Below are positions 8,393 through 23,767 of a stretch of 64,000 bases of DNA, one piece after another. A program made the position numbers and the translations under genes. The notes beneath the pieces were generated by a model that searched no databases, was not told the DNA's origin, and saw only the letters and a list, made by a program, of their open reading frames with translations. Where the stretch lies: positions 101,830 to 165,829 of the IMG/VR virus record IMGVR_UViG_3300010383_000113. The stretch is one strand, 5' to 3'. Source of the DNA: a virus (Duplodnaviria; Heunggongvirae; Uroviricota; Caudoviricetes). The stretch's first letter is position 1. Every line of letters begins with the position of its first letter.

Positions 8393-8764
8393 TTATTCGT
8401 CGGGAGTTTCGCCGTCTTCGCCCACCCCCTGCTCCTCTTCGGCCTCGGCCGTCTGGGGAGCAGCAGGGAGGGCGGGTTCGTCGACGGCCGTTTCGGCGGA
8501 GGCGGGGTCTTCGGTCGACTCAAGCTTGTCGATGTCGGCCTGGATGTCGGCGAGAGAAGGCCCGGGGACGATATCGGTCAGGTCGACCTCCTCGGCGGGG
8601 ACCTCGACCGTCTCGACCAGTAGTTCGTCGGCGTCGGTTTCGGGCGAGGGCACCAGGTTCTCGAAGAAGGTCGGCGGCAGGACGAGGTTGACCTGGCCGG
8701 TGTAGACGGGGGGCGTGTCGAGGACGTTCTCGGGCTTGGCGGGGTCGATGGGCTGGCTGGACAT
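8393..8764 (-). CDS. acidic hypothetical protein
   Basis: 123 aa, highly acidic; C-terminus EEEQGVGEDGETPDE encoded by an inverted pair of GC-motif copies. Confidence 0.45.
   Translation of the reverse strand: MSSQPIDPAKPENVLDTPPVYTGQVNLVLPPTFFENLVPSPETDADELLVETVEVPAEEVDLTDIVPGPSLADIQADIDKLESTEDPASAETAVDEPALPAAPQTAEAEEEQGVGEDGETPDE
8421..8476. repeat. inverted pair of GC-rich motif copies (CCCACCCCCTGCTCC..N19..GGAGCAGCAGGGAGGGCGGG)
   Basis: direct reading; lies inside coding sequence. Confidence 0.6.
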
Positions 8765-9240
8765 CAGCAGAACTCCTGGAATTGTCGGTCGGCTTTCTTC
8801 TTCATCTTGGCCATCGCGGCGTGGTAGACGCCTGCGGCCTCCTCGGGACTCATGGACAGGGCCTCGCCGATCCGCTTGAAGGTCATGTCGTCCCGGAATC
8901 GCATGTCGACGACGGCACGTTCGCGGTCGTCCAGATGGGCCAGGAGCCGGCCCGCCACCTCCTGGGCGTCGAGCCGGGCCTCCAGGTCCTCGAACGGCCG
9001 GGATTCGACCGGCCCCGGCGGGGCCTCCCTGACCTTCCGCATGAGCCGACGCTTCCGGAACTCGGTCCGCTGATGCGTGATCATCATGCGGCGGACGCTG
9101 AAGTACAGCGACGTGACGAATTTCCGGCGGCTGTCGGGCTTGTGGCCGATCAGGGTCTTCATGAGGGCGATGCGTCGGATCTGCTCGCCCTCCTCATGGG
9201 TGATATAGGGCACGAAGGGCAGGCACGCCCTCGCCATCAT
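8764..9240 (-). CDS. ECF-type sigma-70 family sigma factor
   Basis: region 4 LDDRERAVVDMRFRDDMTFKRIGEALSMS; region 2-like IRRIALMKTL..FVTSLYFSVRRMMI. Confidence 0.65.
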   Translation of the reverse strand: MMARACLPFVPYITHEEGEQIRRIALMKTLIGHKPDSRRKFVTSLYFSVRRMMITHQRTEFRKRRLMRKVREAPPGPVESRPFEDLEARLDAQEVAGRLLAHLDDRERAVVDMRFRDDMTFKRIGEALSMSPEEAAGVYHAAMAKMKKKADRQFQEFC

Positions 9241-9298
9241 CTTGACGTTGTTGGGATTCTTCCAAGCGGCCTCGAAAGCCTCGTCCGTGATTCGGGCC

Positions 9299-9955
9299 TC
9301 AGAGGTCGTAGTAGACCTCCCCGCCCACGGCCGTCTTGGCGTTCACGTAGTCGGCCAGGCGTCGCACGACGGCCCGGTCGTCGCCGCTCCGGACGAAGTC
9401 GACGGAGCCGTTGGGCAGGGCCAGGAGGGCCCAGAACTGCCCCTTCTCCCTCGCCTCGGACTCCACCTCGACGATGGCCCGGTCGACGTCCGGCCTCCCG
9501 TCCCGCGAGGAAGGGTCGGCCCCGAGGAGCCGCTCGATCCCACGCCGGATGCGGCTCGTGTTCCAGCCGCCGGCCGCGAACGCCTTGCCGAACCCCACCT
9601 TGAACCGATACCGGGTCAGGACGTCCAGGGTCTCCACCCCGGGGAACTCCTCGATCTCTTCGAGGACCTCCTCCGAGATGTTGAAGTTGGCGTGGCCCGT
9701 CCAGAAGTCGAAGGCCTTGGTCGTGTCGGCGGCGATCTTGGTGGGCACCAGGCCCGCCGAAGTCGGGATCAGGACCGGGAGGGCGGCCAGGCGATCGGGC
9801 CGGACGAACCCGTCCTCCACCTCGTCGCCGTCGTCGTCCTCGTGGTCGGCCCCCATGTACTCGGACGGCCGGGCCTCGTCCTCGGGCACCCACTCCCTGC
9901 TCCCGCCCAGCGGATGCTGCCAGTATTCCCAGCGGATCTTACGAACCGGCTCCAT
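9299..9955 (-). CDS. hypothetical protein
   Basis: 218 aa ORF; no recognisable motif. Confidence 0.45.
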   Translation of the reverse strand: MEPVRKIRWEYWQHPLGGSREWVPEDEARPSEYMGADHEDDDGDEVEDGFVRPDRLAALPVLIPTSAGLVPTKIAADTTKAFDFWTGHANFNISEEVLEEIEEFPGVETLDVLTRYRFKVGFGKAFAAGGWNTSRIRRGIERLLGADPSSRDGRPDVDRAIVEVESEAREKGQFWALLALPNGSVDFVRSGDDRAVVRRLADYVNAKTAVGGEVYYDL

Positions 9956-10883
9956 GAATCAGTTCCATGATCTGTCGTCCTTCGAGGGCGGCGTTCATGT
10001 CCAGCCCGAAAGTCTTTTCCGGAAATCCCCGCAGTTTTGCGAAGAACTCTCCCTGCTCCCGCTTGTTGTCGACCCCCTCGGCGATCAGGGCGTGTCGAAG
10101 GTCTTCCTCGTCGTATCCGTCCAGGAAGTCGCGAAGGACCGCCATCTCCATCCGCGTGAACGAGACGGCGTCGAACCGATAGTCCAGGAAGGCCTCGAAG
10201 CAGATCGGGGCCACCTTGTGGACGATGCCGGCGATCACGTCGGCGAACGACCGGGTCTGGGCCTGGGCGTCGGGCTTGCACCTCAGCGACAGGAAGTGGA
10301 ACAGGTTGTGGAGGTCCATCTTCCAGTTGAAGTAGGTGTAGGTCGACAGCGGCAGGTCGATCCGGGCCATCTCCCGGGCGATCCCATCCGCCAGGTTCTC
10401 TTTGTAGGACGAGAACGCTTGGCGGGCCAGGAAGTCGTGCAGCTCGACGAAATCCTCGTACTGGGCCGGCGAGACCGGGCCTCCGCTCCCCTGCTTGTTG
10501 TCGGACGACTGGAAGCAGACCTCGGAGGAGCAGGGGGTGTAGACGACGTCCGGCAGTTCGACGTATCGGCCGGAGATCTCATTGGCGTTGCTCGTGCGAT
10601 GTCTCATCCACTGCCGGGCCACGAAGATTGGCATTCCGATGTGGAAGCTCAGCTCGGTGGACTCGAACGGCGAGGTGTGGCGATGCCGCATGAGGTAGCG
10701 GAGAAGGCGTCGGGTGTCGGCGATGCTGCGGGCCTGCGGGGCGATCTCGTAGGAACCTCGGGCGAACCGTTCCACGGCCAGGTCCCCGCCCATGTAGTCG
10801 GTCAGGGCGACGAAGCCGTGGTCGAGTACGGGGAAGTACCTATCGAGGATCTCGTCGGCCGCCGGGATGGCGAGTCTCGGCAC
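9939..10883 (-). CDS. thyX: flavin-dependent thymidylate synthase ThyX
   Basis: RHRHTSPFESTELS (ThyX RHR-x7-S motif), LDHGFVALTDYMGGD; start probably GTG near 10883 rather than the ORF-track ATG at 10958, which would overlap the upstream gene by 74 nt. Confidence 0.8.
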   Translation of the reverse strand: MPRLAIPAADEILDRYFPVLDHGFVALTDYMGGDLAVERFARGSYEIAPQARSIADTRRLLRYLMRHRHTSPFESTELSFHIGMPIFVARQWMRHRTSNANEISGRYVELPDVVYTPCSSEVCFQSSDNKQGSGGPVSPAQYEDFVELHDFLARQAFSSYKENLADGIAREMARIDLPLSTYTYFNWKMDLHNLFHFLSLRCKPDAQAQTRSFADVIAGIVHKVAPICFEAFLDYRFDAVSFTRMEMAVLRDFLDGYDEEDLRHALIAEGVDNKREQGEFFAKLRGFPEKTFGLDMNAALEGRQIMELIHGAGS

Positions 10884-10884
10884 G

Positions 10885-11241
10885 TCAGTCCTCCGACGGC
10901 CGGTAGCCGTGCATGATCCGGGCGACGGCCTCGGTCGGGGGGACGACGGGGTCGTCACGCCGGGCCCGCATCTTCTCGTTCATGAAGCCGGCCATGTGAC
11001 GCTTGATCTCCCGGGCGTCGCCCTGGGCGTCCATGACCTCGGCGAACCCGTCGACGGCCTCGACGATCTGGGGGATGCAGGACCCGATCTGGAGGTGGGT
11101 GATCAGGCCGGCGAAGGCCTTCAGGTCGGTGTCGGGGCCCCACTCGGCCAGGAAGGTGGGCTCGTCGCCGGCCAGCTCGACCACGATCCGGGCCAGGATC
11201 TCGTCGTCCGCCTCCACCTCGATCTCGATCTCTTCGCTCAT
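10885..11241 (-). CDS. acidic hypothetical protein
   Basis: likely start MSEEIEIEVEADDE (ATG about 11239-11241). Confidence 0.4.
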   Translation of the reverse strand: MSEEIEIEVEADDEILARIVVELAGDEPTFLAEWGPDTDLKAFAGLITHLQIGSCIPQIVEAVDGFAEVMDAQGDAREIKRHMAGFMNEKMRARRDDPVVPPTEAVARIMHGYRPSED

Positions 11242-11251
11242 GAGAATCCTT

Positions 11252-11614
11252 TCAGGACGAGACGACCAGGCCGAGGGTCTTGAGGGCGGCCAGGATGTCC
11301 TGGAAGGCCCCGAGCTGGTCGGCCGGGGTGAGGACGAGGCGGCTGTAGGCACGGGCGACGAGTCCGCTGGCTTCGAGGTAGTCGGCGGCCGTCGCGTCCT
11401 TGAGGCCCCCCTTGACGCTCGTGCCGAGGCCGAAGAGGGACGCCGCCGCCAGCAGGTCGGTCACGCCCCCCTGGATGTCGCGGGGGTCGAGGACGAACTT
11501 GCTGTAGGCACGGGCCACGAGGCCGGTCCCCTGCAACACGTCGGTCGGGGCGAAGGAGGTAGAGGGATCGGAGATGAAGTCGAGGAACGTCACGGGCTTG
11601 GACATGGGTTTCAC
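11252..11614 (-). CDS. hypothetical protein with internal tandem duplication
   Basis: GLVARAYSKFVLDPRDIQGGVTDLLAAASLFGLG repeated as GLVARAYSRLVLTPADQLGAFQDILAALKTLGL. Confidence 0.4.
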   Translation of the reverse strand: MKPMSKPVTFLDFISDPSTSFAPTDVLQGTGLVARAYSKFVLDPRDIQGGVTDLLAAASLFGLGTSVKGGLKDATAADYLEASGLVARAYSRLVLTPADQLGAFQDILAALKTLGLVVSS

Positions 11615-12282
11615 ACCAATGTGGGGTTTTGGATTTTGGGATACTGTCGGTTGTAGATCCGGACCGTCGGCTTGCCGCCGAAGCCCTTGTGGGTGCCGTA
11701 CTCGCCGTACCGCAGGATCCGGTCGATCCCGTGGCGGTCGAGCAGCATGAACCAGGTTCCCCTGGGGAGGGACATCTCGACCTCGACGTCGGGGTCGCCG
11801 TTGCCGCCCACCATGTACGAGGGCGTCGCCACGACGAGGAGCCGGGCGTCCTTGGTGTCCAGGTAGTTGACCAGGTCGGCGACCTTGAAGGTCAGGAAGG
11901 CCTGGGAGGGGGCGTACTTGACCTCGACCGGGTAGGAGCCGGACGGCCCCGTCACCTTGAAGTCGAGCAGCCGATTCCGCCAGCCGCCGTCGACGACCAG
12001 GCGGCCCTCGTTGTCGAGTCCGAGGTCTTCGAAGGCCTCCCCTGCTCCTCCGAAATGCGGCCAGCAGGCCTCGAAGAGGAGGCGTTCCCGGACGGTGTTG
12101 TCGTAGAGGCCCAGGGCGAATCGGCCGAGGCTCCGCTCGTCGCGGCGGTGGCGGAACTTGGCGAGGGCGTGGGGCGGGAGGGAGGCGGCGATCGAGTTGA
12201 TCTGGTCGAAATAATCCCGGCGGGAGATTTCGCTTCGCTTCAGCCTGTCGAAAATATCATCGAGGGTTTTCTGGACGTCCAA
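11611..12282 (-). CDS. hypothetical protein (possible PD-(D/E)XK nuclease fold)
   Basis: D...VEVK arrangement (VVDGGW..YPVEVKYA); weak. Confidence 0.4.
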   Translation of the reverse strand: MDVQKTLDDIFDRLKRSEISRRDYFDQINSIAASLPPHALAKFRHRRDERSLGRFALGLYDNTVRERLLFEACWPHFGGAGEAFEDLGLDNEGRLVVDGGWRNRLLDFKVTGPSGSYPVEVKYAPSQAFLTFKVADLVNYLDTKDARLLVVATPSYMVGGNGDPDVEVEMSLPRGTWFMLLDRHGIDRILRYGEYGTHKGFGGKPTVRIYNRQYPKIQNPTLV

Positions 12283-12391
12283 CAGCGGGGCCGCCGTGCC
12301 TCACGCATTCCGCGTTCGCCTCCGCCGGATTCTGCGGCGGGTTCGAAAGGGACGGCCGGGCGAGGAGCGTGTCCAGGCCCGGCCGCGTGCG

Positions 12392-12667
12392 TCACGGGAG
12401 GAAGGTGCCCTGGTTGGGGCCGTGGCCGTTGGGGGCCAGCTCGACCTGGGCGGGCCGATTGCTGCGGGCCTGCTCATAGGCGGCGAAGTCGGCGAGGACG
12501 CCGTTCAGCGTGGCCAGCGTCATGCCGGTGTCGCGGAGGATGCCGTCCTTGTCGAACAGCCCGGCGGTCCGCTTGAAGAACCAGAGCAACTGGTTGATCA
12601 CGAGCTTGGCGGCGGCGGTCTCGGCCTCGGCGGCGTCGATCAGGTCTTGCATTTCTTCTTCAGTCAC
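12392..12667 (-). CDS. hypothetical protein
   Basis: 91 aa ORF; two GC hairpins downstream at 12330-12391. Confidence 0.4.
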   Translation of the reverse strand: MTEEEMQDLIDAAEAETAAAKLVINQLLWFFKRTAGLFDKDGILRDTGMTLATLNGVLADFAAYEQARSNRPAQVELAPNGHGPNQGTFLP

Positions 12668-13142
12668 TTCGGATCTCCAGGCTGTTTTCGTCTCGGGGTG
12701 GCGGGTTGAATTTGACCATGCGTGGGGCCGGAGCCCTGAATTTCGTCATCTTTTCGGGGGTGCGGACGATCGGCTCGGGCTTTTGCCATCCATCCTCTTG
12801 GAGGATCTCCTCGACCAGGGCCCACACATCCAGGATTCTAGGACATGAGGAAAAGTTCTTGGCGGCCCTCTTGGCTTCGAAGCGGCGGAGACGCTCGGCG
12901 TCGCGGTCGCTGTAGATGTGGTCGGACGTGGCGACGTGGGGATCACGAGACGGACGGTGGCTCATGACGGGCGGCTCCTGGATGTTCGGCGTCGAATCCT
13001 TCGTCGGACCCTGCGGTCTGGCTGATCGTGAGATGGCATCCTCCTCATGGATGTGCCGCCACTTTATGCGAGAGCGTCCTTGCACGCAAGCAAAATGCGG
13101 CTTCGACGACCGTTTTCGAAAAGAAACGGGAGGGGGTTCCAT
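12660..13142 (-). CDS. hypothetical basic protein
   Basis: ATG at 13142 preceded by GGAGGGGGTGCAGG and a promoter-like element. Confidence 0.35.
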   Translation of the reverse strand: MEPPPVSFRKRSSKPHFACVQGRSRIKWRHIHEEDAISRSARPQGPTKDSTPNIQEPPVMSHRPSRDPHVATSDHIYSDRDAERLRRFEAKRAAKNFSSCPRILDVWALVEEILQEDGWQKPEPIVRTPEKMTKFRAPAPRMVKFNPPPRDENSLEIRSD

Positions 13143-13162
13143 CCTGCACCCCCTCCAGTTAT

Positions 13163-13191
13163 ATTATAGGATACGAACTCTCGCCTGTCAG
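13163..13191 (-). promoter_or_regulatory. putative sigma-70-like promoter (minus strand CTGACA-N17-TATAAT, extended GTATCCTATAAT)
   Basis: 45-nt intergenic gap; 17-nt spacing. Confidence 0.4.
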
Positions 13192-13658
13192 CGAGGATCG
13201 ACTCCGACATAGAACCGCTCATACCCCTTGGGGATCATGGCGGACGGGATCACCTCGCCGGTCTTCCAGTTCTTGGAGTACGGCATGGTGGTCGGAGTGC
13301 CCATCACCATGTTGGGGATGCCACGCGGACCCGACTGGTCCGGCCTGAACGTCGGGCCGCCGATCTTCGGTGCCCTTCCCTCCTGCACGGCCGACATGGG
13401 GGTCCGCTTCTCTCTCGGGCGTCCCGCCGAGGCGTCGACGGCGGCCTTGTAGGCCTCGACCCGCCGCATGGACTCCATCTCGGCCATCATCTGGCGGGCC
13501 ATGGCCTCGTCGCGGGCCTGCTGGTTGTGGCGGGCGTAGGCGGCCCGCTTGCGGGCCATCCGCTCCTTCACACTCTGGGGCTGGGACTGGGCCCGGACGT
13601 CGGCCCCGACCAGGACGGCCGAGGCGGCGACGACCAGGGCGAGGATGCGATGCTTCAT
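13188..13658 (-). CDS. secreted hypothetical protein
   Basis: signal peptide MKHRILALVVAASAVLVGADVRA. Confidence 0.5.
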   Translation of the reverse strand: MKHRILALVVAASAVLVGADVRAQSQPQSVKERMARKRAAYARHNQQARDEAMARQMMAEMESMRRVEAYKAAVDASAGRPREKRTPMSAVQEGRAPKIGGPTFRPDQSGPRGIPNMVMGTPTTMPYSKNWKTGEVIPSAMIPKGYERFYVGVDPR

Positions 13659-15061
13659 CAGGACTCCTCCGTTTCGGATTCGGGTTTCCGGGGCTTGCGG
13701 GGACGGCCCGGCTTCTTGGCCGGCACGCCGTCCTTCTGCTGCTTATAAGCCTTCCAGCGGCCCTTGTCCACTCCCAGCGTGCTCGCACTCAGGATCTCGA
13801 TGAGTTCCGCCGGGACTCCGTCGACTTTCTCGAAAAATTCGCCGTCGGGCTTTTTGAGGGGTTGGTCCTTGCGGAACATGTCCGAGAAATAAGATTTGGC
13901 GAACTTGTACATGTCGCGACGCTTGTCCTCGGCCGACGTCCCCTCCAACTCCCGGTCGAAGACCAGGGAGGCGTGCTCGACCATCCGCTGGAGTTCCTCG
14001 TCGATCGGGTCGTCGTCCATGCCGATGGCGGCCAGCCTCCAGGCGAAGCAGTTGGCGATGCCGCAGATCATGTGGGAGCCGTACCGGGTGCCCCCCTTCG
14101 AGGTCGGCGACAGGGCCGAGCCCGGCATGAAGAGACGCTTCTCGGAGTTGGGGTTGGCGGGGTCGGACGGCTCGCCGCGTTCCTCCAGCAGTTGGTAGGC
14201 CTGGACGTAACGCTCGGCCAGCCATTCGGGCGACCTCTCGAAGTGCATCGCGATCAGGCTGCCGCCGTACACCGTGGTCGCCAGCGACGACGAATTGTCG
14301 GCGATGAGGGAGGCGTACTGCACCTTGTTCATGGCGGCCTCGTCGAACGTGACGAAGTTGCCCAGGTGGCTCCGCGTGTCCTTGGCCAGGAGGTGGACGG
14401 TCTCGGTGGCGTGCTTCACGACGGGCAGCTTCTCGTCGTCGTAGTCGCCCGACGCGATCGACATCGACTTGACGAGGTTCCGGCTGGCCGCCTTGCCCTT
14501 CTGGAAGTTCAGGAAGTCCTGGGGGAGGTGCTTGGGCGACAGCGACAGCTTGATGTTGATCGGCAGGGCGTCGATGCGACGCATCAGGTCCTCGTCGCCC
14601 TGGGCCTCGGCGAAGAAGAGTTCGAGGGCTTGGCGGCGATGATTGGCGTCGGGCAGGGGCAGTTTGCGGTCGGTCGTCGCCGTCACCTTGACCCAACGGG
14701 GCCCGCCCTCCTCGGTCGGCTCGGAATACTTCAGCCTATTGAGGTGCCAGTCCTCGATCGCCACCTCCCAGGTCGTGGGCGTGTAGGTGTCGTCCTTGAT
14801 GGCTTCGAGCAGGGCACGGACGTGGGCCTTGGTCGTCTTCCGCTGCCACCCGCCGAGTTTCTCGTAGTCGTACTCGCGGACGTAGATCAGACGCTTGAGG
14901 TAGCCGAACGGCACGACCATCGAGCTGAAGGGCCGGTCCTTCTCGGGGTCGTCGGTGACGTTCCAGACGTAGACGGGCCCGTCGAGTTCGAACGTCTCGA
15001 CCTTGGGGACCTCGGCCTTCGGCTTCGTCTTCGGCTTGGCGGGGGTCTTCGCGGCGGCCAT
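13658..15061 (-). CDS. DNA-binding protein with ParB/DGQHR-like core and C-terminal AT-hook
   Basis: 467 aa; N-terminal PAKPKTKPK; GWQRKTTKAHVRALLEAI and LPLPDANHRRQAL resemble DUF262/DGQHR signatures; C-terminal KKPGRPRKPRKP AT-hook. Confidence 0.45.
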   Translation of the reverse strand: MAAAKTPAKPKTKPKAEVPKVETFELDGPVYVWNVTDDPEKDRPFSSMVVPFGYLKRLIYVREYDYEKLGGWQRKTTKAHVRALLEAIKDDTYTPTTWEVAIEDWHLNRLKYSEPTEEGGPRWVKVTATTDRKLPLPDANHRRQALELFFAEAQGDEDLMRRIDALPINIKLSLSPKHLPQDFLNFQKGKAASRNLVKSMSIASGDYDDEKLPVVKHATETVHLLAKDTRSHLGNFVTFDEAAMNKVQYASLIADNSSSLATTVYGGSLIAMHFERSPEWLAERYVQAYQLLEERGEPSDPANPNSEKRLFMPGSALSPTSKGGTRYGSHMICGIANCFAWRLAAIGMDDDPIDEELQRMVEHASLVFDRELEGTSAEDKRRDMYKFAKSYFSDMFRKDQPLKKPDGEFFEKVDGVPAELIEILSASTLGVDKGRWKAYKQQKDGVPAKKPGRPRKPRKPESETEES

Positions 15062-15173
15062 GCGGCCCTCCTCGTGGATGATCGTGGGTGCGGCGGGCCG
15101 CGTCGAGCGGACGCCCTACACAATCAATCTACGCGGAGCGGCGAAAAATACAAATTGGATTTCGAGTTTTTCT

Positions 15174-15446
15174 TCAGTCCTGGATCTTGGACTCGATCTC
15201 GGCCTTCAGGTCGCCGACCTCGGGAGGGGCCATGCCGATCGCCACGGGCCCGTCGATGACCTTGTAGGCCTTGAGCGTGAGCGACTTCCACTCGGCGGAT
15301 TCCTTGACGGCCCGCTCGTACTCCGCCCCCGTCACGATGTAGCCGGCACCCCAGGCCAGGACGACGGCCACGAGGACCGCGATGGCCCCGCCCTTGTTGA
15401 CCCAGTCGTACAGCCCGTTCGCCACCGTCTGATTCACGTCAGGCAT
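15174..15446 (-). CDS. small membrane protein (single TM)
   Basis: start MPDVNQ (ATG about 15444-15446); TM AIAVLVAVVLAWGAGYIV. Confidence 0.45.
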   Translation of the reverse strand: MPDVNQTVANGLYDWVNKGGAIAVLVAVVLAWGAGYIVTGAEYERAVKESAEWKSLTLKAYKVIDGPVAIGMAPPEVGDLKAEIESKIQD

Positions 15447-15648
15447 GGACAGTCCTCTTCCCTCGGCATTCCCGGCAGACCTTCGCGTAGCGGCAACGCC
15501 GACACCCCGACGTGCCCCCGCATCCCGAACATACGCCGGTGCCCTCGCACTCGGGGCATTCGAAGGGGGAAGCCGCCACGGGGATCGCCGCCAGGGCCTC
15601 GGCCAGGGACGAACAGGACGGGCAATGGCAGCGGGCCTCATTCGCCAC
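15439..15648 (-). CDS. DnaJ-type zinc-finger (CxxCxGxG) mini-protein
   Basis: CPECEGTGVCSGCGGTSGCRRC; ATGA coupling with upstream gene. Confidence 0.45.
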   Translation of the reverse strand: MANEARCHCPSCSSLAEALAAIPVAASPFECPECEGTGVCSGCGGTSGCRRCRYAKVCRECRGKRTVHA

Positions 15649-16024
15649 GGCGGGCCCCCTCGATCTTGTGGGCCAGGTCCTTCACCTCGTTGGCCACCAG
15701 GGCCAGGCCCGACGTCATCTCGTGGACCTGGTCCCGCGTGTCCTTCGCAAGGCTCTCGATCTGGTGCTGGAAATTCTGCGACACGTTGGTGATCTGGGCC
15801 TGGAAGCTGTTCGTGAGGGCCTGGACCTGGGCCTGATGGTTGGCGATCACCGTATCCATGCGGGCGTTGTTCTTGTCGACCGCAGCCTGGTCCTTCGCGT
15901 CGCGTTCGTTGAGGTAATACCGGAAACCCCAGAGCATCAGGAGGACGACGCCGACGGTGCCCCCCTGCTGCCAGACGTGGACCATGTCGCCGAAACCGCC
16001 GGTCACGTTCGCCAGGATGTACAT
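15638..16024 (-). CDS. membrane-anchored coiled-coil protein
   Basis: N-terminal TM VGVVLLMLWGF then Q/A-rich heptads. Confidence 0.5.
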   Translation of the reverse strand: MYILANVTGGFGDMVHVWQQGGTVGVVLLMLWGFRYYLNERDAKDQAAVDKNNARMDTVIANHQAQVQALTNSFQAQITNVSQNFQHQIESLAKDTRDQVHEMTSGLALVANEVKDLAHKIEGARRGE

Positions 16025-16100
16025 CGTCTCGCCCTTCGCACTGGAGGAAAATGTATTCCCGCCGACGCGGCGGCGACTCCCCTATTGAATACCCCTGGCG

Positions 16101-16694
16101 TCAACGCCTAATAAAACCTAGCACTTCGTCGGGATACAGCTTCTCGACGTCGAAGCACATCCAGCGTTTGTGGTGGTTGAACGAGGCGGAGAAGGCGATC
16201 TCGTCGAGGTATCCGAGGACCCCGTCCATGTCGTCGAAGAAGAGTTCGTGGGGCAATTTCCCGAACAGCCAGTCGGGGATCGCCGCCTTGCCCTGCTTGC
16301 ACCAGACCAGGACGGGCTTCTTCTGGTCGTTGGCCCGGGAGATCTCGTCGTAGGTGCCGCAGGCGTGGACGTCAAGGTCGACGAGGGCCACCAGGAAGTC
16401 GGAGACGTTGACCATCCGCAGGTCGATGGCGTGGATCTTCTTCATGATCGAGGCGAAGTCGTCGTAACCGGCCGGGCCCTTGAAGGCGTGGCGGGCCTTT
16501 CGGCTCTCGTCGTCCTCGTGGGCCTCGTCGATCGGCTTGTCCATCGGGTCGAGCACGACGATCCCGCGACGGTGGAGTTCCGGGGTGATGCGTCGCCGCC
16601 ATTCGCGGCCGGAATTCGGGCATCGGTCGATGGGGCCGGCGAGGTAGGCTCTCTGGCCCAACAAACGCGAAACGGTTTTCAATTTCCTGGACAT
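16101..16694 (-). CDS. nucleoside 2-deoxyribosyltransferase-like protein
   Basis: start MSRKLK (ATG about 16692-16694); AYLAGPIDRCPNSGREWRRRITPELHRRGIVVLDP resembles the NDT family N-terminus. Confidence 0.5.
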   Translation of the reverse strand: MSRKLKTVSRLLGQRAYLAGPIDRCPNSGREWRRRITPELHRRGIVVLDPMDKPIDEAHEDDESRKARHAFKGPAGYDDFASIMKKIHAIDLRMVNVSDFLVALVDLDVHACGTYDEISRANDQKKPVLVWCKQGKAAIPDWLFGKLPHELFFDDMDGVLGYLDEIAFSASFNHHKRWMCFDVEKLYPDEVLGFIRR

Positions 16695-16734
16695 GATTTC
16701 TCCAACGAGGGCGATCCGGTCAAGCCACAACCTG

Positions 16735-16750
16735 TACGTAGGACGGGATC
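16735..16750 (-). promoter_or_regulatory. putative -10 element CGTCCTACGTA upstream of 16694 start
   Basis: cgTCCTAyAAT family member. Confidence 0.25.
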
Positions 16751-16830
16751 GGCCGCCTGCGGCGGCGGAGCAGGGAGGGCTGGGCCTGTGCGTTGCGGCG
16801 ACGTCGTCATGTCCCCCACTCCCTGCTACT
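16751..16830. repeat. hairpin GCCGCCtgcGGCGGC fused to GGAGCAGGGAGGGC, and inverted partner CCCCCACTCCCTGCTACTC 33 nt away
   Basis: direct reading. Confidence 0.6.
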
Positions 16831-17002
16831 CTTCTCCGTCCGGGCTGATCAGGATGGGGGCGACGATCTCTCACGAGGGTCGCGGAGCCGATCCCCGGGG
16901 CGGCCTTCCGGGGGAGGAGCAGGGAGTTCGGGGGAGGGGAAGATTTTCCACGCGGCTTGGCACGAGAGAACGGCACCGTTTTTGCTATTAATACTTCTTG
17001 GA

Positions 17003-17030
17003 AGCTTTATTGCCCGAAGGGCATAAAGCT
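17003..17030. other. stable stem-loop AGCTTTATTGCCC-GAA-GGGCATAAAGCT in AT-rich patch
   Basis: 12 bp stem with one bulge and GAA triloop. Confidence 0.4.
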
Positions 17031-17494
17031 CCAAGAAGAAGAAAGGTATGCCTCCCTCTCCCCTCCGAGCTTCTTTCCGGAATTCCCAAAGTTTTTTCCG
17101 AGATCGCCGCCCTGCCCTCCCGGCCCGTCCCGCCGCCGGTCTTGATGCGAGGCGTCCTAGAATAGTTATACCGGGGCACTGGGTCATGATGCCGCCGTCG
17201 GGATGTGGGTCCAGCCGAGACGAGTCGACCGTCGAGGCCGTTCCTGGGGTGCCCGAAACCAGTTCCGCGTCCCAGACGCCGGGTTGATCGAGAGATCGCC
17301 ACGCCGTCCGGTCGCGACGTTCGAGGATCCGAGCCTGTCAACGCGGCGTCCGACTGAGACGCCCGGCTCGGCCCGTCCGTCGCGTCGGCCCGGCGGGGTA
17401 GTCTCCCTCGGTCGGCCCGACGGATGGAGACGCGGTTGACCATCAAGACGACTCTTCAACGTGATGACAAGTGGATTTTTAGAAGGAATTTCTC

Positions 17495-19282
17495 GTGGCC
17501 GATTGTCAGACCTGGATGTTCAACCCCGGCAAGCCATGCTGCGGCGACGACGGACTCAAGTGCGGCGTCCCCCTCTTCCCGGGTGACACGCCGAACACCT
17601 GGATATACTCGCCCGTCGCCTCGGCTTCCGTAGCGGGCCGTGGGAACGTGTCCCTGGCCTTCAGGTACGCCCCTGACGGGAATCGGGGCTACTGGCGATC
17701 GTCCGTCGTCCGGTTCGACAGCGACCATGTCGTGAAGGTCGATCGTGATGGGAACCCCGTCTCGATCGGCCCCGGCGTCTCCGGCTTCCGGATCTTCTTC
17801 CGTGGGTCGTCTCGCAACCCCCTCGGGTACGAGGCCCAGCTCGTCTACATGACGGCCTTCAGCCCCCTCGACCCAGCGACCGGCGAGCCGTGGCCGAATC
17901 CCACGTCGATCAGCCAGGGGTTCCTTGACGTCGGCAGCAGGTATTTCCGGATCGACGGGCCCGTCGTCGACGGCGGTGATCCCTTCTCGTTCTTCGGCAT
18001 GAAGCGTGAGTATGAACCGGGTGCCGATGGGCCTTCGTTCGGCGTCTCCGCGTCCGGCCTCTTCGTCGGCACCTCCTTCGGATCGATCGCATTCAACTCC
18101 GCTTTGACGAGACCCGTCGGATCGTCGATCAATTACGGCGGCACGCCGAGGTTCTTGGCGTCCTCTCCTCCGACCGTCGCTTCAAGTTTCGGAGTCTCAA
18201 CCCAGACGGCCGACGCGAGCGAATGCTGCCGTCCATGGTGCCAGACCTGCCAATGCTTCCTGGATTACTTCGCCACGGTGGACGACGGCAACGGAGTCTG
18301 GTGGCTCAATCGGACGAACACGCAGTCTGGCATCGCCGGGGGTAGGAACGTCTACACGGGGAGTGGATGGAAGCACACCGGGCTGTTCTACCCGGACTAT
18401 CCTGGTTCGACCAAGTTGTTCGAGCGTTTCAGTAATTACGACTTCAACGTCTACTGCTGCGGTGATTCCATCAAGCTCGCCGTGCAGTACAACCTCTACG
18501 AATACGGCGTTGGGCTTGGCGGGCAGACCATCATCTACACGCGGAACATGGTGCCCTTGTATAAGCAGTTCGTCCTAACGGGCGACCCCGGTTCCGGTCA
18601 GATGTCGCTCGAACCGATGGATGGCGTCTACACACAGAACACCTACTCGCCGCCGAGCGTCCGGGACGCCTGCACGAACCTCGTCAAACTCGACGTCGAT
18701 GCCTACAACGCCCTCTACTCGAACAACCAGACCTTCCCTCACACGATGTTCGTGCTGGACCATGACGGCGGTCCGAACATGCCGGTCACCGGCGGCACGG
18801 TCGCCATCCGGACGATGGACCAGCGTCGTGTCGTGTGCTGTCGCTATCCCTTGCCGAAGAAGAACCTCGTCCTGAGCTGGACCCACCCCGAGATCGGCGA
18901 CGGATCCGTGAGGTTGATCTACAACGGCGGCGACCAGATATTCACGGCCGGGTGGGTCGCCGAGTCCGTCGTGCAGACGAGCGTGCCGTTCCCGGCCGGG
19001 ACTTCGTGTGCGGGTCGTCCGGCGGGATTGAAGTTCATCCTCGGATGCGGAGGCCTCGGCTACCAGCCTCATTCCACGGACGGATGCTTCAGCACGGACA
19101 CGTCATCCCTGCTCGAATTCCACCCCTATCCGGTCGCCACGACGTCGGAAGACCTCCTCTTCTGGATCAGCAGCCGCCCCCTCGTCATCGAATGGCAGAA
19201 GTATTGGCGTCCCGAACTGGGTACTCCCGTGCCCTCGTTCTTCTCTCAGCTCGGCTTCACCAGCCTGACGATCACGGAGTGA
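17495..19282 (+). CDS. large Gly/Ser/Cys-rich hypothetical protein (possible structural or adsorption protein)
   Basis: 595 aa; GTG 17495 or ATG 17516; CCRPWCQTCQC, YCCGDS; only long plus-strand gene. Confidence 0.5.
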   Translation: MADCQTWMFNPGKPCCGDDGLKCGVPLFPGDTPNTWIYSPVASASVAGRGNVSLAFRYAPDGNRGYWRSSVVRFDSDHVVKVDRDGNPVSIGPGVSGFRIFFRGSSRNPLGYEAQLVYMTAFSPLDPATGEPWPNPTSISQGFLDVGSRYFRIDGPVVDGGDPFSFFGMKREYEPGADGPSFGVSASGLFVGTSFGSIAFNSALTRPVGSSINYGGTPRFLASSPPTVASSFGVSTQTADASECCRPWCQTCQCFLDYFATVDDGNGVWWLNRTNTQSGIAGGRNVYTGSGWKHTGLFYPDYPGSTKLFERFSNYDFNVYCCGDSIKLAVQYNLYEYGVGLGGQTIIYTRNMVPLYKQFVLTGDPGSGQMSLEPMDGVYTQNTYSPPSVRDACTNLVKLDVDAYNALYSNNQTFPHTMFVLDHDGGPNMPVTGGTVAIRTMDQRRVVCCRYPLPKKNLVLSWTHPEIGDGSVRLIYNGGDQIFTAGWVAESVVQTSVPFPAGTSCAGRPAGLKFILGCGGLGYQPHSTDGCFSTDTSSLLEFHPYPVATTSEDLLFWISSRPLVIEWQKYWRPELGTPVPSFFSQLGFTSLTITE

Positions 19283-19284
19283 AC

Positions 19285-19722
19285 ATGAAGTGCGATCACT
19301 GTCCGGTCGCCCGAGGAGGATCGTGCCGTGGAGAACGGATCAAACGATATTGCGAGTTGTCCGACCCGGCCCGCAAGGACTACGACCCCACCTACGTCGA
19401 CTTCTTGATCGGGGATGCGAAGCAGGGAGGGGTTGGGCCCGGCCCCTCGTTCCTCAAGAAGGCCGCCAACTTCGCCAGGGCCGCCGTCAAGCACGCGGCC
19501 GACGGGTTCGGCGTCGTCCCGGACGAGGTCCGCGAGGCGAGGCTGGCCAGATGCCGCCCATGTCGCTTCTACGACGACGGGACGTGCCGGCACGAGGAAT
19601 GCGGCTGCCACCTGGAGACGAAGGCGTCCTGGGCCTCCCAGGCCTGCCCGATCGACGAGTGGGGCCCTCATGAGGTCGACGGCCCCGGGCATGGCTGTTC
19701 CTCGTGCGGGGGTGGGCGATGA
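19285..19722 (+). CDS. cysteine-rich putative metal-binding protein
   Basis: MKCDHCPVARGGSCRGE..CRPCRFYDDGTCRHEECGCH; the ORF-track upstream extension overlaps 17495..19282 in another frame and is rejected. Confidence 0.5.
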   Translation: MKCDHCPVARGGSCRGERIKRYCELSDPARKDYDPTYVDFLIGDAKQGGVGPGPSFLKKAANFARAAVKHAADGFGVVPDEVREARLARCRPCRFYDDGTCRHEECGCHLETKASWASQACPIDEWGPHEVDGPGHGCSSCGGGR

Positions 19723-20381
19723 AGATCTGCTGCGTTTCCGATCTCCACGGCCATCTGCCCGAGATCCCCGACTGCGACCTCCTGCTCCTCGGCGGCGACC
19801 TGGTCCCGAGGTGGGCCCACGAGCCTCTCATCGGCCGATCCTGGCTCGACACGAACTTCCGGCGATGGCTTGACGGTCTAACGAGTCGGTGTCGCGTCGT
19901 CGGCGTGGCGGGCAATCACGACTTCGTCTTCGAGGCCGGGATGGGCGATCTCGCACGCCCCCTGCCCTGGACCTACCTCCAGGACTCGGACTACACAGTC
20001 GGTGGCCTCAAGGTCTACGGGAGCCCTTGGCAGCCCTACTTCGGCGGATGGGCGTTCAACCTCGAAGAGGACGACCTGGCCGCCAGGTGGGAGATGGTCC
20101 CGGGCGACGCGGACATCCTCCTCCTGCACGGCCCTCCCTATCTCCATGGCGACTTGACGCCCGAGGGCCTCCATGTGGGCAGCCCCTCCCTGCTCCGATC
20201 CATCCGGAGGGTCCGACCACGCCTGGTTGTTTGCGGACACATCCATTCGGCTCGCGGCGTCTACGAGGTCGGCGTCACGACGATCGTGAACGCCTCATTG
20301 GTCGACGAGGCCTATCGGCCCATTCATGAGCCGTTCCTGGTCGAGATCGACGGCGACGAGGCCGAGGTCCTTCGGGTGTAA
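19719..20381 (+). CDS. metallophosphoesterase (calcineurin-like)
   Basis: VSDLHGH, GGDL, GNHDF, GHIHSARG; ATGA overlap with previous gene. Confidence 0.7.
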   Translation: MKICCVSDLHGHLPEIPDCDLLLLGGDLVPRWAHEPLIGRSWLDTNFRRWLDGLTSRCRVVGVAGNHDFVFEAGMGDLARPLPWTYLQDSDYTVGGLKVYGSPWQPYFGGWAFNLEEDDLAARWEMVPGDADILLLHGPPYLHGDLTPEGLHVGSPSLLRSIRRVRPRLVVCGHIHSARGVYEVGVTTIVNASLVDEAYRPIHEPFLVEIDGDEAEVLRV

Positions 20382-20383
20382 AC

Positions 20384-20426
20384 GAAAAAAGCCGCAGAGG
20401 TCGTGCCCCTGCGGCTTGGTTCTTCA
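20384..20426. terminator. bidirectional rho-independent terminator between convergent genes
   Basis: AAAAAA-GCCGCAG-loop-CTGCGGC-TTGGTTCTT; a U-run follows the hairpin on both strands. Confidence 0.6.
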
Positions 20427-21194
20427 GTCGATGATCTCGGCGATGGCCACCTTCATGCTGGCGGCGGCGGTCTCGTAGGCCTCGGCCGACTCCTTGGGGT
20501 TCAGCTTGAGGCGGCGGCCGATCTTGGCGAGGGACTCGGGCTCCTCCCGGTCGATCCCGAAACGCCTCACGAGGAAGTAGCGTTCGGCGGGGTCGATGCG
20601 ATGGAGGCCGTCCCGGACCAGCTTCACGACGCCGTCGCAGCCGATGTCCGAGGGGTCGGCCTCGTCCTCGTCGGCCACGTCGAGCCTGGTGCCGTCCTCT
20701 CGCGGCGAGTGGAAGGAGGCCGTCTTGCGAGACGCCAGCACGGCCACGATGGCGTCGTACTCGTCCGACGACAGGTCGAAGGACGACATCGCCTCCTCCT
20801 TGGTCGGACGGCGGCCGTTCTCGTCCTGGAACCAGCGGACGAGCCGCTGAAACTTCAGGATGGTCTTGCTGGCGTGGACGGGGACGCGGATCAGGGTGCC
20901 GTTGCGATAGATCGCGTTCTGGATGGCCTCGACCACCCGGAACTTCGCGTGGGTGGAGAACCGGGCCTTGCCGGGGTCGAAGTCCTCGACGGCACGGCAG
21001 AGGCCCAGCATCCCTTCCTGCATCAGGTCCTCGCGTTCGACGCCGCGTCCGACATATGTACGGGCGACGGCCCGGACCAGGGGGATGTGCTTGGCGACCA
21101 GGTCGGCTTTCGACGTGGGCCGGCAGTTCGTGTCGGCTTCGACGCCGCAACCTTCGAAAAAACCACGTTCCTCTTCCAGCGTCAGGTAGGCCAT
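20424..21194 (-). CDS. sigma-70 family sigma factor (group 3-like)
   Basis: region 2 DLMQEGMLGLCRAVEDFDPGKARFSTHAKFRVVEAIQNAI; region 4 YFLVRRFGIDREEPESLAKIGRRLKLNPKE. Confidence 0.7.
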   Translation of the reverse strand: MAYLTLEEERGFFEGCGVEADTNCRPTSKADLVAKHIPLVRAVARTYVGRGVEREDLMQEGMLGLCRAVEDFDPGKARFSTHAKFRVVEAIQNAIYRNGTLIRVPVHASKTILKFQRLVRWFQDENGRRPTKEEAMSSFDLSSDEYDAIVAVLASRKTASFHSPREDGTRLDVADEDEADPSDIGCDGVVKLVRDGLHRIDPAERYFLVRRFGIDREEPESLAKIGRRLKLNPKESAEAYETAAASMKVAIAEIID

Positions 21195-21205: not shown

Positions 21206-21472
21206 TCAGGCGTGGATGTCGGTCAGGAGGTGGGGGAGGCGTTCGATCTGGTGGCCGTAGGTGCCGGTCTGCTCTTTCAGCGGGTCGACGATGACCAGGC
21301 GGACCTTCTGGTTGTCCGAACCGGGCTTGCCGGTGATCTTCCCGATGTAGATCTCGATGGGGCGTCCGGTCGAGGGGGGGACGAGTTCGATGCCTTCGTT
21401 CAGCTTCCGTTCGATGACGAGTGCCAAGCGGATTCTCCGTGCGTTCGATGCGTTTCCATGTGCGGTCTCCAA
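21206..21472 (-). CDS. hypothetical protein
   Basis: 88 aa ORF. Confidence 0.45.
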   Translation of the reverse strand: METAHGNASNARRIRLALVIERKLNEGIELVPPSTGRPIEIYIGKITGKPGSDNQKVRLVIVDPLKEQTGTYGHQIERLPHLLTDIHA

Positions 21473-21497
21473 GTGCCGGGGCCGGGCCCCTATTCAG

Positions 21498-21510
21498 AAT
21501 ATAGGACAGA
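21498..21510 (-). promoter_or_regulatory. putative -10 element TGTCCTATATT in 75-nt intergenic gap
   Basis: cgTCCTAyAAT family. Confidence 0.3.
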
Positions 21511-21548: not shown

Positions 21549-21802
21549 TTAGGCGTGAAACGGCACGATGCAATAGGAATCTTCGAGATGTCCGCATGTC
21601 GATGCCAGTTCAGCCTTTCGGCAAGCCTCGCGGTAGGACGGGAATCGGGTGGCGGTGGCGGGGTCGGTCGTGAACCGGGTGCCCCAGACGTAGGAGGCGA
21701 TCGGGCGGCGGGGGTTGTCGACGCGGATGATGAGCGATTCGGCCATCGGGGTCTCCGGGTGAAAGTTCGGCGGACCCCTGTAATGTAGGACGAGCGGATC
21801 CA
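21549..21802 (-). CDS. hypothetical small protein
   Basis: ATGATG at about 21797-21802 lies 4 nt after GGAGCAGGGAGG; an alternative start MAESLII (about 21740) is preceded by CGTCCTACATT and GGAG. Confidence 0.35.
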
Positions 21803-22639
21803 TCATCCGGCCTCCCTGCTCCTCTGCCCTCCCCCTTTGGTCATGAGATGGTGACGGGCCAGGTCGAGGATCGTGATCGCCGCCGACTCCGGGAGGTCGG
21901 GGTGGACGATCTTCACCTCGACCGAGGCCTTGTACGCGGGCGTCTCGACGGGGATGATGAACTTGGAGACCTTGCCCTTCAGGAGGGTGGACTCCTTGGG
22001 GTTCTCGGCCCTGGCGACGCTGTAGGCTTTCGTCAGGCTGATCTTGCCCTCGATGAGCTGCTGCCTGGTCGTCTCGTTCAGCTTCAATATACTCAGCATC
22101 TTCGAGACGTGTCCGGCGGAAATCCCGATTTTCTTGGCGACCTGATCCTGGCTCATGCCGAGCTTGTCCATCATGGCCTTGTAGGCCTCGGCCTGCTCGA
22201 CCGGATTGAGGTCTTCGCGGGTGCAGTTCTCGATGAGCTGGTCGACCAGCAGGTTCCCGTCGTCCAGCTTGCTCGTCTCGATCAGGGCCTCGATCGCCGT
22301 CACGCCCGCCATCCGGCAGGCCTGCCAGCGACGCTCCCCGGCGATGATGACGTAGTGTTCGAGCAGGTCGTCCCACCGGACGCGGATCGCCTGGAGGAGC
22401 CCCCGGTCGCGGATCGTGTCGGCCAGGCGTTCGAGTTCGACCTGGTCGAATTGCTTGCGGGGCTGGTTCGGGTCCGGCTTGATCCGGTCGATCGGGATCA
22501 GGCCCGAGTTCTTGAGCTTCTTGACGCCCTGATGCTGGGCGGACCTGGCGGGGGCCGGCGTGGCGGCTTCGGCCGACGCGGCCTCTTCGAGCCCGGCCCC
22601 CATCGACTCGGCCATATGGTCTTCGTTGAACCTGCTCAT
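21803..22639 (-). CDS. parB: ParB partition protein
   Basis: IIAGERRWQA (ParB GERR box), HTH region; start MSRFNEDHMAESMG near 22639. Confidence 0.75.
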   Translation of the reverse strand: MSRFNEDHMAESMGAGLEEAASAEAATPAPARSAQHQGVKKLKNSGLIPIDRIKPDPNQPRKQFDQVELERLADTIRDRGLLQAIRVRWDDLLEHYVIIAGERRWQACRMAGVTAIEALIETSKLDDGNLLVDQLIENCTREDLNPVEQAEAYKAMMDKLGMSQDQVAKKIGISAGHVSKMLSILKLNETTRQQLIEGKISLTKAYSVARAENPKESTLLKGKVSKFIIPVETPAYKASVEVKIVHPDLPESAAITILDLARHHLMTKGGGQRSREAG

Positions 22640-23439: not shown

Positions 23440-23549
23440 GACGATCGGGCTCCGGTTAGATGGTGATCACCACCCTTCTTATCGGAGCCGTGCCCGTGGG
23501 CCTGCAAGAAAAACGGGAGGAGCAGGGGGTGGTGTCGTCCCGGCCCCGT

Positions 23550-23728
23550 CTTTCTCGGAGAAAGTTGCCGGCCGCCCTCGCCGTCACGGTCCCCGGCGGG
23601 GCGATCTTTCCTCAAGAAAGGTCCGGCTGTGCGGCCTCTGATATGTTCGATCGACCCGTCTTTCTCGAAGAAAGATCGACCTGCGGCGTGCCGGCCGGCC
23701 CGTCGGACGACGCCTTTCTTGAGGAAAG
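23550..23728. repeat. centromere-like array: four 15-bp palindromes CTTTC-N5-GAAAG at about 55-bp spacing
   Basis: CTTTCTCGGAGAAAG (23550), CTTTCCTCAAGAAAG (23606), CTTTCTCGAAGAAAG (23660), CTTTCTTGAGGAAAG (23714); immediately upstream of parA. Confidence 0.6.
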
Positions 23729-23738
23729 ATCGCCCGTT

Positions 23739-23767
23739 CGCCCTCCCTGCTACGCGGCGAAGCCGCC
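23739..23767. repeat. motif-hairpin module CGCCCTCCCTGCTAC + GCGGCgaaGCCGC
   Basis: direct reading; flanks the parS array opposite GGAGCAGGGGGTGG at 23512-23530. Confidence 0.6.

Follow-up and report, generated by a model that had tools for sequence, protein, structure and literature searches.

The stretch of DNA considered here, 64,000 nucleotides long (positions 101,830 to 165,829 of IMG/VR virus record IMGVR_UViG_3300010383_000113) and hereafter called the window, carries two genes for proteins of the sigma-70 family, a small one that we designate sigA and a larger one that we designate sigB (Table 1). Both open reading frames (ORFs) are present exactly as a preliminary description of the sequence had given them, both are coding by self-trained codon scoring (G or C content at third codon positions, GC3, of 0.90 for sigA and 0.91 for sigB), and the proposal in that description that their products belong to different classes of the family is borne out by domain profiles and sequence alignments. 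The outcome named there as refuting it, that one of the proteins would lack the helices of regions 2 and 4 in profile searches, did not arise. The window is part of a phage-like extrachromosomal element of about 172 kb with plasmid-type maintenance functions, for which the source is a single 171,667-bp Joint Genome Institute (JGI) contig; the window does not by itself prove a virion. Nearly all of its genes lie on the minus strand, and the annotated ones encode the large and small subunits of ribonucleotide reductase (RNR), deoxycytidylate (dCMP) deaminase, ThyX, a DndB-like protein and a nucleoside deoxyribosyltransferase-like protein, together with ParA, ParB, a weak RepA-like match, an ATP-grasp protein, a Band-7 protein, nicotinate phosphoribosyltransferase (NAPRTase), phosphoribosyl pyrophosphate (PRPP) synthetase and HNH endonucleases. 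The GC content is ~63-67% over 8-24 kb of the window, against ~57% over 44-64 kb, and the window holds no tRNA genes.

In a clustering of 5.8 billion proteins at 90% identity, SigA and SigB each stand alone, and the nearest BLAST-level relative of either in 50,697 deposited phage records is no closer than ~33% identity. Syntenic relatives of the element were found in L001 (55% GC), L005-L008 (38%), L023 (48%), L025 (64%) and L026 (59%), which have in common the gene order DndB-like … ThyX–X–σ–(low-complexity ORF)–Y–Z … dCMP deaminase–RNR. The core block around sigA is kept across all of these loci, over a GC span of 38-64%.

SigA is, on the evidence of its profiles and a predicted structure, a minimal sigma factor in which σ2 and σ4 are joined by a linker with no σ3, which is the architecture of the extracytoplasmic function (ECF) type to which it had provisionally been assigned. 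Pfam recognizes its region 4 (Sigma70_r4, 36.3 bits), Sigma70_ECF (21.0 bits against a cutoff of 21.1) and Sigma70_r4_2 (23.6 against 25.7) fall short, and NCBIfam TIGR02937 scores above its cutoff (46.8 against 42.9 bits), aligning residues 20-149 with profile positions 33-164. Word-indexed searches returned no relatives of SigA; exhaustive phmmer searches returned 89 homologs, mostly of 150-180 aa. The profile built from 16 of these homologs meets RpoS in two separate domains, corresponding to region 2 (profile positions 17-115, 21 bits) and region 4 (99-168, 37 bits), meets WhiG and SigW in one stretch, and retrieves SigK, ECF and other sigma factors, many of them with only a region 2 Pfam match. 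An AlphaFold2 (AF2) model computed from an 11-sequence alignment has a mean predicted local distance difference test (pLDDT) score of 84.8 and shows two domains of four helices each, one N-terminal (residues 3-88) and one C-terminal (109-174), on either side of a disordered linker (91-106). Foldseek comparison of this model with the PDB returned sigma factors only, the best full-length matches being ECF sigmas of the same size, Mycobacterium tuberculosis SigL (E 4e-5) and SigH, then AlgU, SigW and RpoE; the TM-scores are low (0.3-0.4), which is normal for the rigid superposition of a pair of flexibly linked domains.

The likeness to cellular ECF (group 4) sigmas such as SigL/SigH, RpoE and SigW thus extends to domain layout, length, best structural matches and the TIGR02937 score. 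Unlike them, SigA escapes detection by Sigma70_r2, misses Sigma70_ECF by 0.1 bit and has no detected cognate anti-sigma gene, and a search of 43 upstream regions gave no autoregulated promoter of the AAC/CGT type and no bipartite motif above shuffled controls. Its family, seen only in these syntenic phage-like elements, is by sequence comparison uncharacterised and barely recognised by curated ECF models.

The annotated 5′ boundary of sigA is, judged from conservation of the codons in front of it, wrong. Ahead of the annotated ATG the frame stays open for 34 codons, reading …SEARITDEAFEAAWKNPNNVK-MM…, and phmmer aligns the homologs from residue 1-2 of the extended query; against the homolog P0029 the extension is identical at 10/19 positions, compared with 29% overall. 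With the extension included, the BLAST E-value improves from 2.6e-7 to 1.4e-13 for the L001 ortholog and from 6e-22 to 5e-28 for that of L023, and residues 1-20 of the AF2 model reach a pLDDT of 94-96. Of the 17 third codon positions in the extension, 14 are G or C. There was no gain in score in the curated NCBIfam and Pfam hidden Markov models (HMMs). We accept the extension because of the homolog alignments, the BLAST gains and the AF2 model, despite the flat HMM scores.

The candidate start for translation of this extension is ATC (9291..9289), the sole near-cognate codon in the extension, preceded 5 nt upstream by GAGG (9300..9297), which overlaps the TGA stop of gene X (9301..9299); no intergenic region precedes sigA, which is coupled to gene X, and in all relatives the stop of X adjoins the start of the sigma gene or overlaps it. 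In L025, L001 and L005 the Ile or Val at the corresponding position follows an ordinary ATG by 1-5 codons. In L023, an independent Logan assembly, the conserved segment ITNEEYEEAW comes after an in-frame stop and ahead of the called ATG, and only ATT codons are available there (9932..10000). Canonical starts are thus missing in two of six family members, the window (9241..9306) and L023, and gene callers shorten the proteins of both, to 158 aa and 156 aa, respectively. L026, considered as a third case, is not a clean one, since 24 codons ahead of its helix there is an ATG. The extension is probably translated, to judge from its conservation, from an AUY codon and in a manner coupled to termination of X. 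Fusion of X and sigA by programmed +1 frameshifting was also considered. The window, L023, L026, L025 and L005 all have sigA in the +1 frame with respect to X, but the idea was rejected: the supposed slip sites are not conserved (CUC-UGA, AAA-UGA, AUU-UGA) and the other relatives have separate, ATG-initiated genes.

The infC gene, encoding IF3, provides an established case of autoregulation through an AUU start codon. By analogy only, sigA would resemble it as a regulatory gene with coding sequence conserved from an AUY codon and with translation sensitive to initiation fidelity; unlike infC, the case for sigA rests on conservation in two of six family members, and termination-reinitiation after X may apply instead. 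It is tempting to go further and to see in an AUY start placed at the stop of gene X a device that throttles sigA and ties it to translation of X, a deliberate translational timer for a transcription switch, and separately to see in the 13-bp motif CCCTCCCTGCTAC discussed below a DNA signal specific to this lineage and recognised by some factor that the element encodes; we offer this extended proposal tentatively and consider it somewhat unlikely.

Gene X itself has orthologs at 33-38% identity in L001, L005, L023 and L025 and no family matches. We agree with the preliminary description that no anti-sigma factor is evident near either sigma gene, the flanking small ORFs being empty in Pfam, NCBIfam, PHROGs and PDB sequence searches. 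For the acidic ORF that follows sigA, searches gave no Pfam, NCBIfam or PDB match, no anti-sigma domain and no Cys/His motif. Low-complexity acidic Pro/Ala-rich ORFs also follow the sigma gene in L001 (7399..7638, 79 aa) and L005 (10550..11266, 238 aa, ending in a basic KRKRGRPRK tail); no sequence similarity is detectable among the three, which are conserved in position only. The same position holds a 79-aa ORF in L025, and none is called there in L023.

SigB is a larger protein of a quite different kind. Its region 2 is matched by Pfam Sigma70_r2 (PF04542) at 65.5 bits (E 4e-18, cutoff 24, residues 32-98), and residues 28-232 align continuously with the NCBIfam models for cyanobacterial RpoD (114 bits), RpoS (110) and RpoD_Cterm (98). 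The preliminary description had called it group-3-like, and this does not hold: models of group 3 reach only 73 bits (SigB/F/G), 56 (FliA) and 52 (RpoH), and the corresponding PDB chains are likewise lower (SigF 50 bits and FliA 47, against 95 for Bacillus subtilis SigA, 7ckq_F, and 84 for RpoS), and the IRVPVH motif of group 1/2 sigmas is kept in region 3.0. Because the RpoD, RpoS and SigA scores exceed those of group 3 in both NCBIfam and the PDB, we conclude from these alignments that SigB is derived from the group 1/2 lineage and not from group 3. PHROG 351 (sigma factor) matches it at 118 bits. Region 3 is present, residues 112-183 aligning unbroken with the RpoD/RpoS/SigA models and PDB chains, and the L023 ortholog has a precomputed weak Sigma70_r3 match. 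SigB is not a full group 1 primary sigma: only 27 residues precede region 2, region 1.1 is absent, and the scores lie far under the RpoD and RpoS equivalog cutoffs (114 against 384 and 110 against 379 bits). The in-frame DNA upstream of its ATG would encode Arg/Pro-rich junk, and the ATG at 21194 is therefore taken as the start. Its nearest relatives, at 33-36% identity, are cellular sigmas of ~324 aa, among them proteins from Solirubrobacterales metagenome-assembled genomes (MAGs).

The C-terminal part of SigB has diverged. Region 4.1 and the first helix of the helix-turn-helix (HTH) align with PDB chains and relatives, and the HMM alignments end just before the recognition helix of region 4.2, which reads NPKESAEAYETAAASM in place of the SSDAVRKLERKALAEL or TRERVRQIEVQALARL of relatives; its length is kept, and the conserved −35-contacting arginines are gone. 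SigB differs from Escherichia coli σ70 by Y430H, W433F, W434R, Q437E, T440Q and E458K, the last three in regions 2.4/3.0, with H455 retained; the σ70 numbering is that of established structural work. Since the arginines of the 4.2 helix are lost and the region 2.4/3.0 residues differ from σ70, we infer that SigB would have altered −10/extended −10 recognition and would read a canonical −35 little or not at all.

The first gene of L023 occupies the same relative position as sigB and encodes an ortholog of SigB of 232 aa (29% identity over 228 aa, E 7e-25); as in the window, two genes on the opposite strand come next and then the DndB-like … ThyX–X–sigA block. By sequence and synteny the pair of sigA and sigB is conserved in at least this one divergent relative (the DNA analysed from the L005-type relatives stops short of where sigB would be expected), and because the pair is kept there we regard both sigmas as old residents of the lineage. 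Matches to SigB on the large contigs P0020 and P0015 lie in cellular or plasmid contexts and are unrelated to the element; the small ORFs upstream of those genes are also unrelated to the 88-aa ORF upstream of sigB.

The sigB gene sits in a compact two-gene unit, made up of a −10-like sequence, TCCTATATT, the 88-aa ORF, sigB and an intrinsic terminator. The TCCTATATT site is, on its sequence and placement, a candidate for the promoter of the unit, and the terminator separates sigB from a convergent plus-strand metallophosphoesterase gene (19704..20381). For the 88-aa ORF, an in-frame TTG (21427..21425) with GGAG (21438..21435) 7 nt upstream is the more likely start and would give 73 aa. This ORF has no match in Pfam, NCBIfam or PHROGs, nor among PDB sequences (E ≤ 10), and its single-sequence AF2 model (pLDDT 51.5) is unusable; a by-eye likeness to CsrA was dropped, there being no Pfam or PDB sequence support and too poor an AF2 model to search with. 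Between parB and the 88-aa ORF lies an 85-aa gene (MMDPLVLHYRG…; 21549..21806, minus strand) that our own gene call missed and that starts 3 nt past a copy of the GC motif described below, which supplies its Shine-Dalgarno sequence. The sequence TCCTACATT at 21782, considered as a promoter, was discarded as lying inside this gene.

Table 1. Features of the two sigma factor loci and associated signals, with positions in the window.
Feature	Position	Strand	Remarks
sigA (as annotated)	8764..9240	−	158 aa; minimal σ2–linker–σ4 sigma, ECF-like architecture
sigA N-terminal extension, ITDEAFEAAWKNPNNVK	9241..9291	−	in frame, conserved helix; no ATG/GTG/TTG
Gene X	9299..9955	−	218 aa; conserved upstream neighbour of sigA
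Acidic ORF	8393..8764	−	123 aa; Pro/Ala-rich, low-complexity; start overlaps sigA stop (ATGA)
sigB	20424..21194	−	256 aa; RpoD/RpoS-type; partial region 1.2, regions 2, 3 and 4.1, degenerate 4.2; no region 1.1
88-aa ORF	21206..21472	−	11-nt gap upstream of sigB; co-transcribed
−10-like sequence, TCCTATATT	21498..21506	−	26 nt upstream of the 88-aa ORF; then inverted copy (CCTAT…ATAGG) and GC hairpin
Intrinsic terminator	20389..20417	−	12-bp stem with 8 GC pairs, T-run; directly after sigB stop
Near-consensus σ70-type promoter with TCCTATAAT	13163..13191	−	CTGACA-17-TATAAT, 11/12 match
TCCTACAAT	4293..4301	−	intergenic, upstream of RNR small-subunit gene; then inverted copy and terminator-like hairpin
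TCCTATAAT	1588..1596	−	intergenic, downstream of RNR large subunit and upstream of 1166..1525; then ATAGGA and hairpin with GC motif
TCCTAGAAT	17155..17163	+	divergent intergenic region, toward plus-strand gene 17495..19282
GC motif, example sites	4816, 23741, 30904, 33573, 44353, 47552, 49147, 50912, 52194, 58655		
Gene Z	6395..7369		best conserved of the lineage-specific proteins (relatives 40-60% identical)

Two recurrent DNA signals had been proposed as recognition sites for these sigmas, the element cgTCCTAyAAT and a GC motif, and they fare differently. TCCTAYAAT occurs in three exact copies in the window, against 0.17 expected, and all three are intergenic, on the coding strand and pointed toward the downstream gene. 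Relatives with one mismatch add the sites at 21498, upstream of the sigB unit, and at 17155, in a divergent region; intergenic sites of this type all lie within the first 22 kb of the window. On this distribution we find it plausible that TCCTAyAAT is a −10 element. For the co-directional array to which ThyX, X and sigA belong, the closest promoter-like site upstream is that at 13163..13191; the remaining sites have no −35. Because the copy at 13163 forms a σ70 promoter close to consensus, the host sigma has no weaker a claim than SigB to be the reader of TCCTAyAAT. Three TCCTAyAWT sites (1588..1570, 4301..4282 and 21506..21488) are followed by their own inverted copy (of the TCCTAT-N7-ATAGGA type) and then by a GC-rich hairpin; these inverted copies and hairpins could form an operator overlapping the −10, or structure in the 5′ RNA.

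The hexamer GTCCTA is strongly biased in strand: in the window 26 copies lie on the coding strand and 2 on the other, and in L023 all 8 are on the coding strand. This is probably an effect of codon usage (xxG-TCC-TAy). Three of its eight copies in L023 are intergenic (p ~0.009), against a p of 0.21 in the window. As a shared upstream promoter element the hexamer was therefore set aside, there being no enrichment in the window and the 26:2 bias being explicable by codon usage; we treat it only as a lead.

The GC motif, CCCTCCCTGCTAC (13 bp), is far more abundant, with 32 copies at ≤2 mismatches against 1.8 expected between positions 1222 and 59774 of the window. It cannot be counted as a sigma recognition site, as had been proposed, because of its distribution: 15 copies lie on the minus and 17 on the plus strand although nearly all genes are on the minus strand, copies occur both in genes and at gene boundaries, many being intragenic, and in L023 the motif is likewise enriched (10 copies against 0.94 expected, at 48% GC), on both strands and mostly within genes (945, 2602, 3437, 15380 and others). 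No exact copies were found in the other fetched loci, and isolated near-matches (≤2 mismatches) occur in L025 and L026. Nine copies in the window are directly followed by a 5-7-bp GC hairpin, mostly with G-N-A triloops and covarying stems. Read in the GTAGCAGGGAGGG orientation the motif sometimes supplies a Shine-Dalgarno sequence, five copies having an ATG at 3-5 nt and 8/17 having any start codon within 15 nt (background 24%); as a pure Shine-Dalgarno leader it was rejected, since this would explain 5-8 of the 17 copies in that orientation and none of those in L023. The motif resembles a DNA-level site or a small repeat element.

As regards the element as a whole, the contigs of the L005-L008 group measure 171,839, 146,232 and 57,509 bp, and sizes near 172 kb recur (171,667, 171,839 and 172,773 bp), which suggests that these are complete genomes. 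The product of gene Z has a homolog at 30% identity on the 37-kb Planctopirus limnophila plasmid pPLIM01 (NC_014149.1, 1184..2218), just upstream of an HNH–TerL–portal–capsid series, and pPLIM01 is evidently a phage-plasmid. This homology would fit a planctomycete host and, for Z, a part in packaging or some other function connected with the virion, though it is no more than a hint of either. Our use of the label phage follows from the gene content, the uniform ~172-kb size of the relatives and the homolog of Z adjoining TerL in the Planctopirus phage-plasmid. Upstream of parA (22636..23439) and parB (21803..22642), four sites at 23440..23780 carry the palindrome CTTTCTYSRGAAAG and look like parS sites or a partition operator; the iteron-like direct repeats GGAGTCAAAYCGRGTAGG and CCCGRGTAGGAT (26607..26797), directly upstream of the weakly RepA-like gene (25206..26606), resemble together with it a plasmid-type replication origin. 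Genomes of the L005 type carry a PAS-histidine kinase and a response regulator upstream of the DndB-like gene (L005 404..2060), a pair that the window does not have. In L023 (13675..18350) the RNR large subunit contains intein/LAGLIDADG domains that the window version lacks, and the RNR small-subunit gene, with a large insertion, is about twice the length of that in the window. Scans of IMG/VR with alignments of SigB, of the SigA family and with one L005 protein gave no useful relatives; the contigs from one metagenome scan were all short and distant, and none lengthened that of L005.

We think it fairly probable that this element encodes two functional sigma-70 subunits, which would redirect the host core RNA polymerase to promoters of the element. 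Host RNA polymerase with its primary sigma would start at σ70-like promoters such as that at 13163..13191, yielding both sigmas. Because its region 4.2 arginines are lost and it carries Q437E, T440Q and E458K (with H455 kept), SigB would probably use −10/extended −10 promoters with no canonical −35, for which cgTCCTAyAAT is the best candidate. SigA would serve a different class of promoters, probably outside the window. Its translation would begin at the non-canonical AUC just past the stop of gene X, and initiation would therefore be weak and dependent on coupling to X. A temporal cascade of the two sigmas, as the preliminary description had suggested, is plausible by analogy with known phages.

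Large phages with no RNA polymerase of their own commonly carry a minimal sigma together with an RpoD-like one (PMC7824862), and among RefSeq phages 1.1% encode two sigmas and 0.7% three, some 2% thus having two or more (PMC9429907). The element is like the group 2 jumbo phages (Iyer et al. 2021, PMC7824862) in its large phage-type genome, in its small and RpoD-like sigmas, in showing no RNA polymerase of its own in the sequence seen and in the presumed recruitment of host core enzyme; unlike the minimal sigma of those phages, which is of the single-HTH gp55 type, SigA has both σ2 and σ4, and no gp33, AsiA, T4-type replication or capsid genes are seen in the window. Phages phiEco32 and 7-11 (PMC4331800) offer a sigma distantly related to σA, promoters that, as is typical of phage sigmas, are few in number and well conserved, and a sigma gene first read from host-type promoters; in contrast, their single sigma is accompanied by a known inhibitor of the host RNA polymerase, where the element has two sigmas and no detected inhibitor or anti-sigma.

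In Bacillus phage SPO1, several phage-encoded sigma factors (gp28, then gp33/gp34) take the place of the host sigma one after another, and early genes are transcribed with the host primary sigma (PMC13401047), as would be the case here; no sequence relationship between the SPO1 proteins and SigA or SigB was detected.

Several of our own results weigh against two functional sigmas acting on element promoters. Pfam finds no Sigma70_r2 match for region 2 of SigA taken alone, and regions 3 and 4 of SigB taken alone are below threshold (12.5 bits for r3; 12.3 bits, E 0.13, for r4). No virion or structural phage genes were seen among the window genes, which bears on the phage part of the proposal, and de novo k-mer and bipartite dyad searches for further promoter motifs gave nothing above shuffled controls. 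The terminator-like hairpin ~30 nt after the motif at 4293 is odd for a promoter, and the near-perfect −35 of the TCCTATAAT copy at 13163 suggests that the host sigma could read such sites instead of SigB.

This last point leads to the most serious alternative, in which the host primary sigma reads TCCTAyAAT as early promoters, neither element sigma uses any signal visible in the window, and the link between motif and sigma is coincidental; we regard this as a substantial possibility, though not the probable one. Only one of 12 positions at 13163..13191 departs from the σ70 consensus and the motif contains TAyAAT, yet the invariant TCC 5′ of the hexamer is no part of the canonical extended −10 (TGn), and SigB is substituted at exactly those residues that in σ70 read positions −12 to −15. 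Both sigma genes lie downstream of such sites, as a host-read early promoter would have it. The exact motif is absent from the intergenic DNA of the relatives, to be set against the intergenic GTCCTA-type elements of L023 (3/8 copies, p ~0.009), which occur there despite a GC content of 48%.

It is also conceivable that the sigmas run no phage temporal programme at all, and that one or both reprogramme host expression or serve plasmid-type accessory regulation, SigB being a fairly recent cellular capture. Phage sigmas can act on host regulons, as do phage-borne sporulation-like sigmas (Schwartz et al., PMC9429907), and an element with parAB, parS-like palindromes, a RepA-like gene and iteron-like repeats would be a suitable vehicle for such regulation. 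The cellular provenance of the nearest SigB relatives (33-36% identity, ~324 aa, including the Solirubrobacterales MAG proteins) fits a capture; recent it can hardly be, with the L023 ortholog in the same position at only 29% identity pointing to long residence in the lineage. The 4.2 helix of SigB has moreover diverged from those cellular relatives, making it unlikely that host promoters of the donor type are read, and the SigA family is seen only in syntenic elements. We therefore think this explanation unlikely. That SigA is not a working sigma, its gene being in decay or its product truncated from the ATG at 9240 and acting only as an HTH regulator or decoy, is somewhat less likely still: the lack of ATG/GTG/TTG upstream of the conserved helix, the failure of Pfam to see region 2 alone, the flat curated HMM scores and the 'ATG ATG' pair kept at the annotated start in the window, L023 and L025 would all suit it, but the extension is conserved as protein (10/19 against P0029; 14/17 third positions G/C) in a way not expected of untranslated DNA, the same arrangement in an independent assembly of other GC content (L023) speaks for function over decay, and the remaining ORF is intact, with a GC3 of 0.90 and a confident two-domain model.

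Taking over host transcription with sigma factors of their own is a classic strategy of phages, and carrying two of them is uncommon but established; the recognition of two sigmas here is mostly a correct and ordinary annotation, with two corrections, to the start of sigA and to the class of SigB. What it adds is an uncharacterised minimal σ2–σ4 family fixed in the core of widespread, uncultured ~172-kb phage-like elements whose hosts span 38-64% GC, in a two-sigma arrangement that is kept in at least one other member of the group. It also flags a reproducible gene-calling error, in which the N-terminus of a sigma factor goes unannotated for want of a canonical start in two independent genomes and which, if true, points to translational control of a sigma factor.

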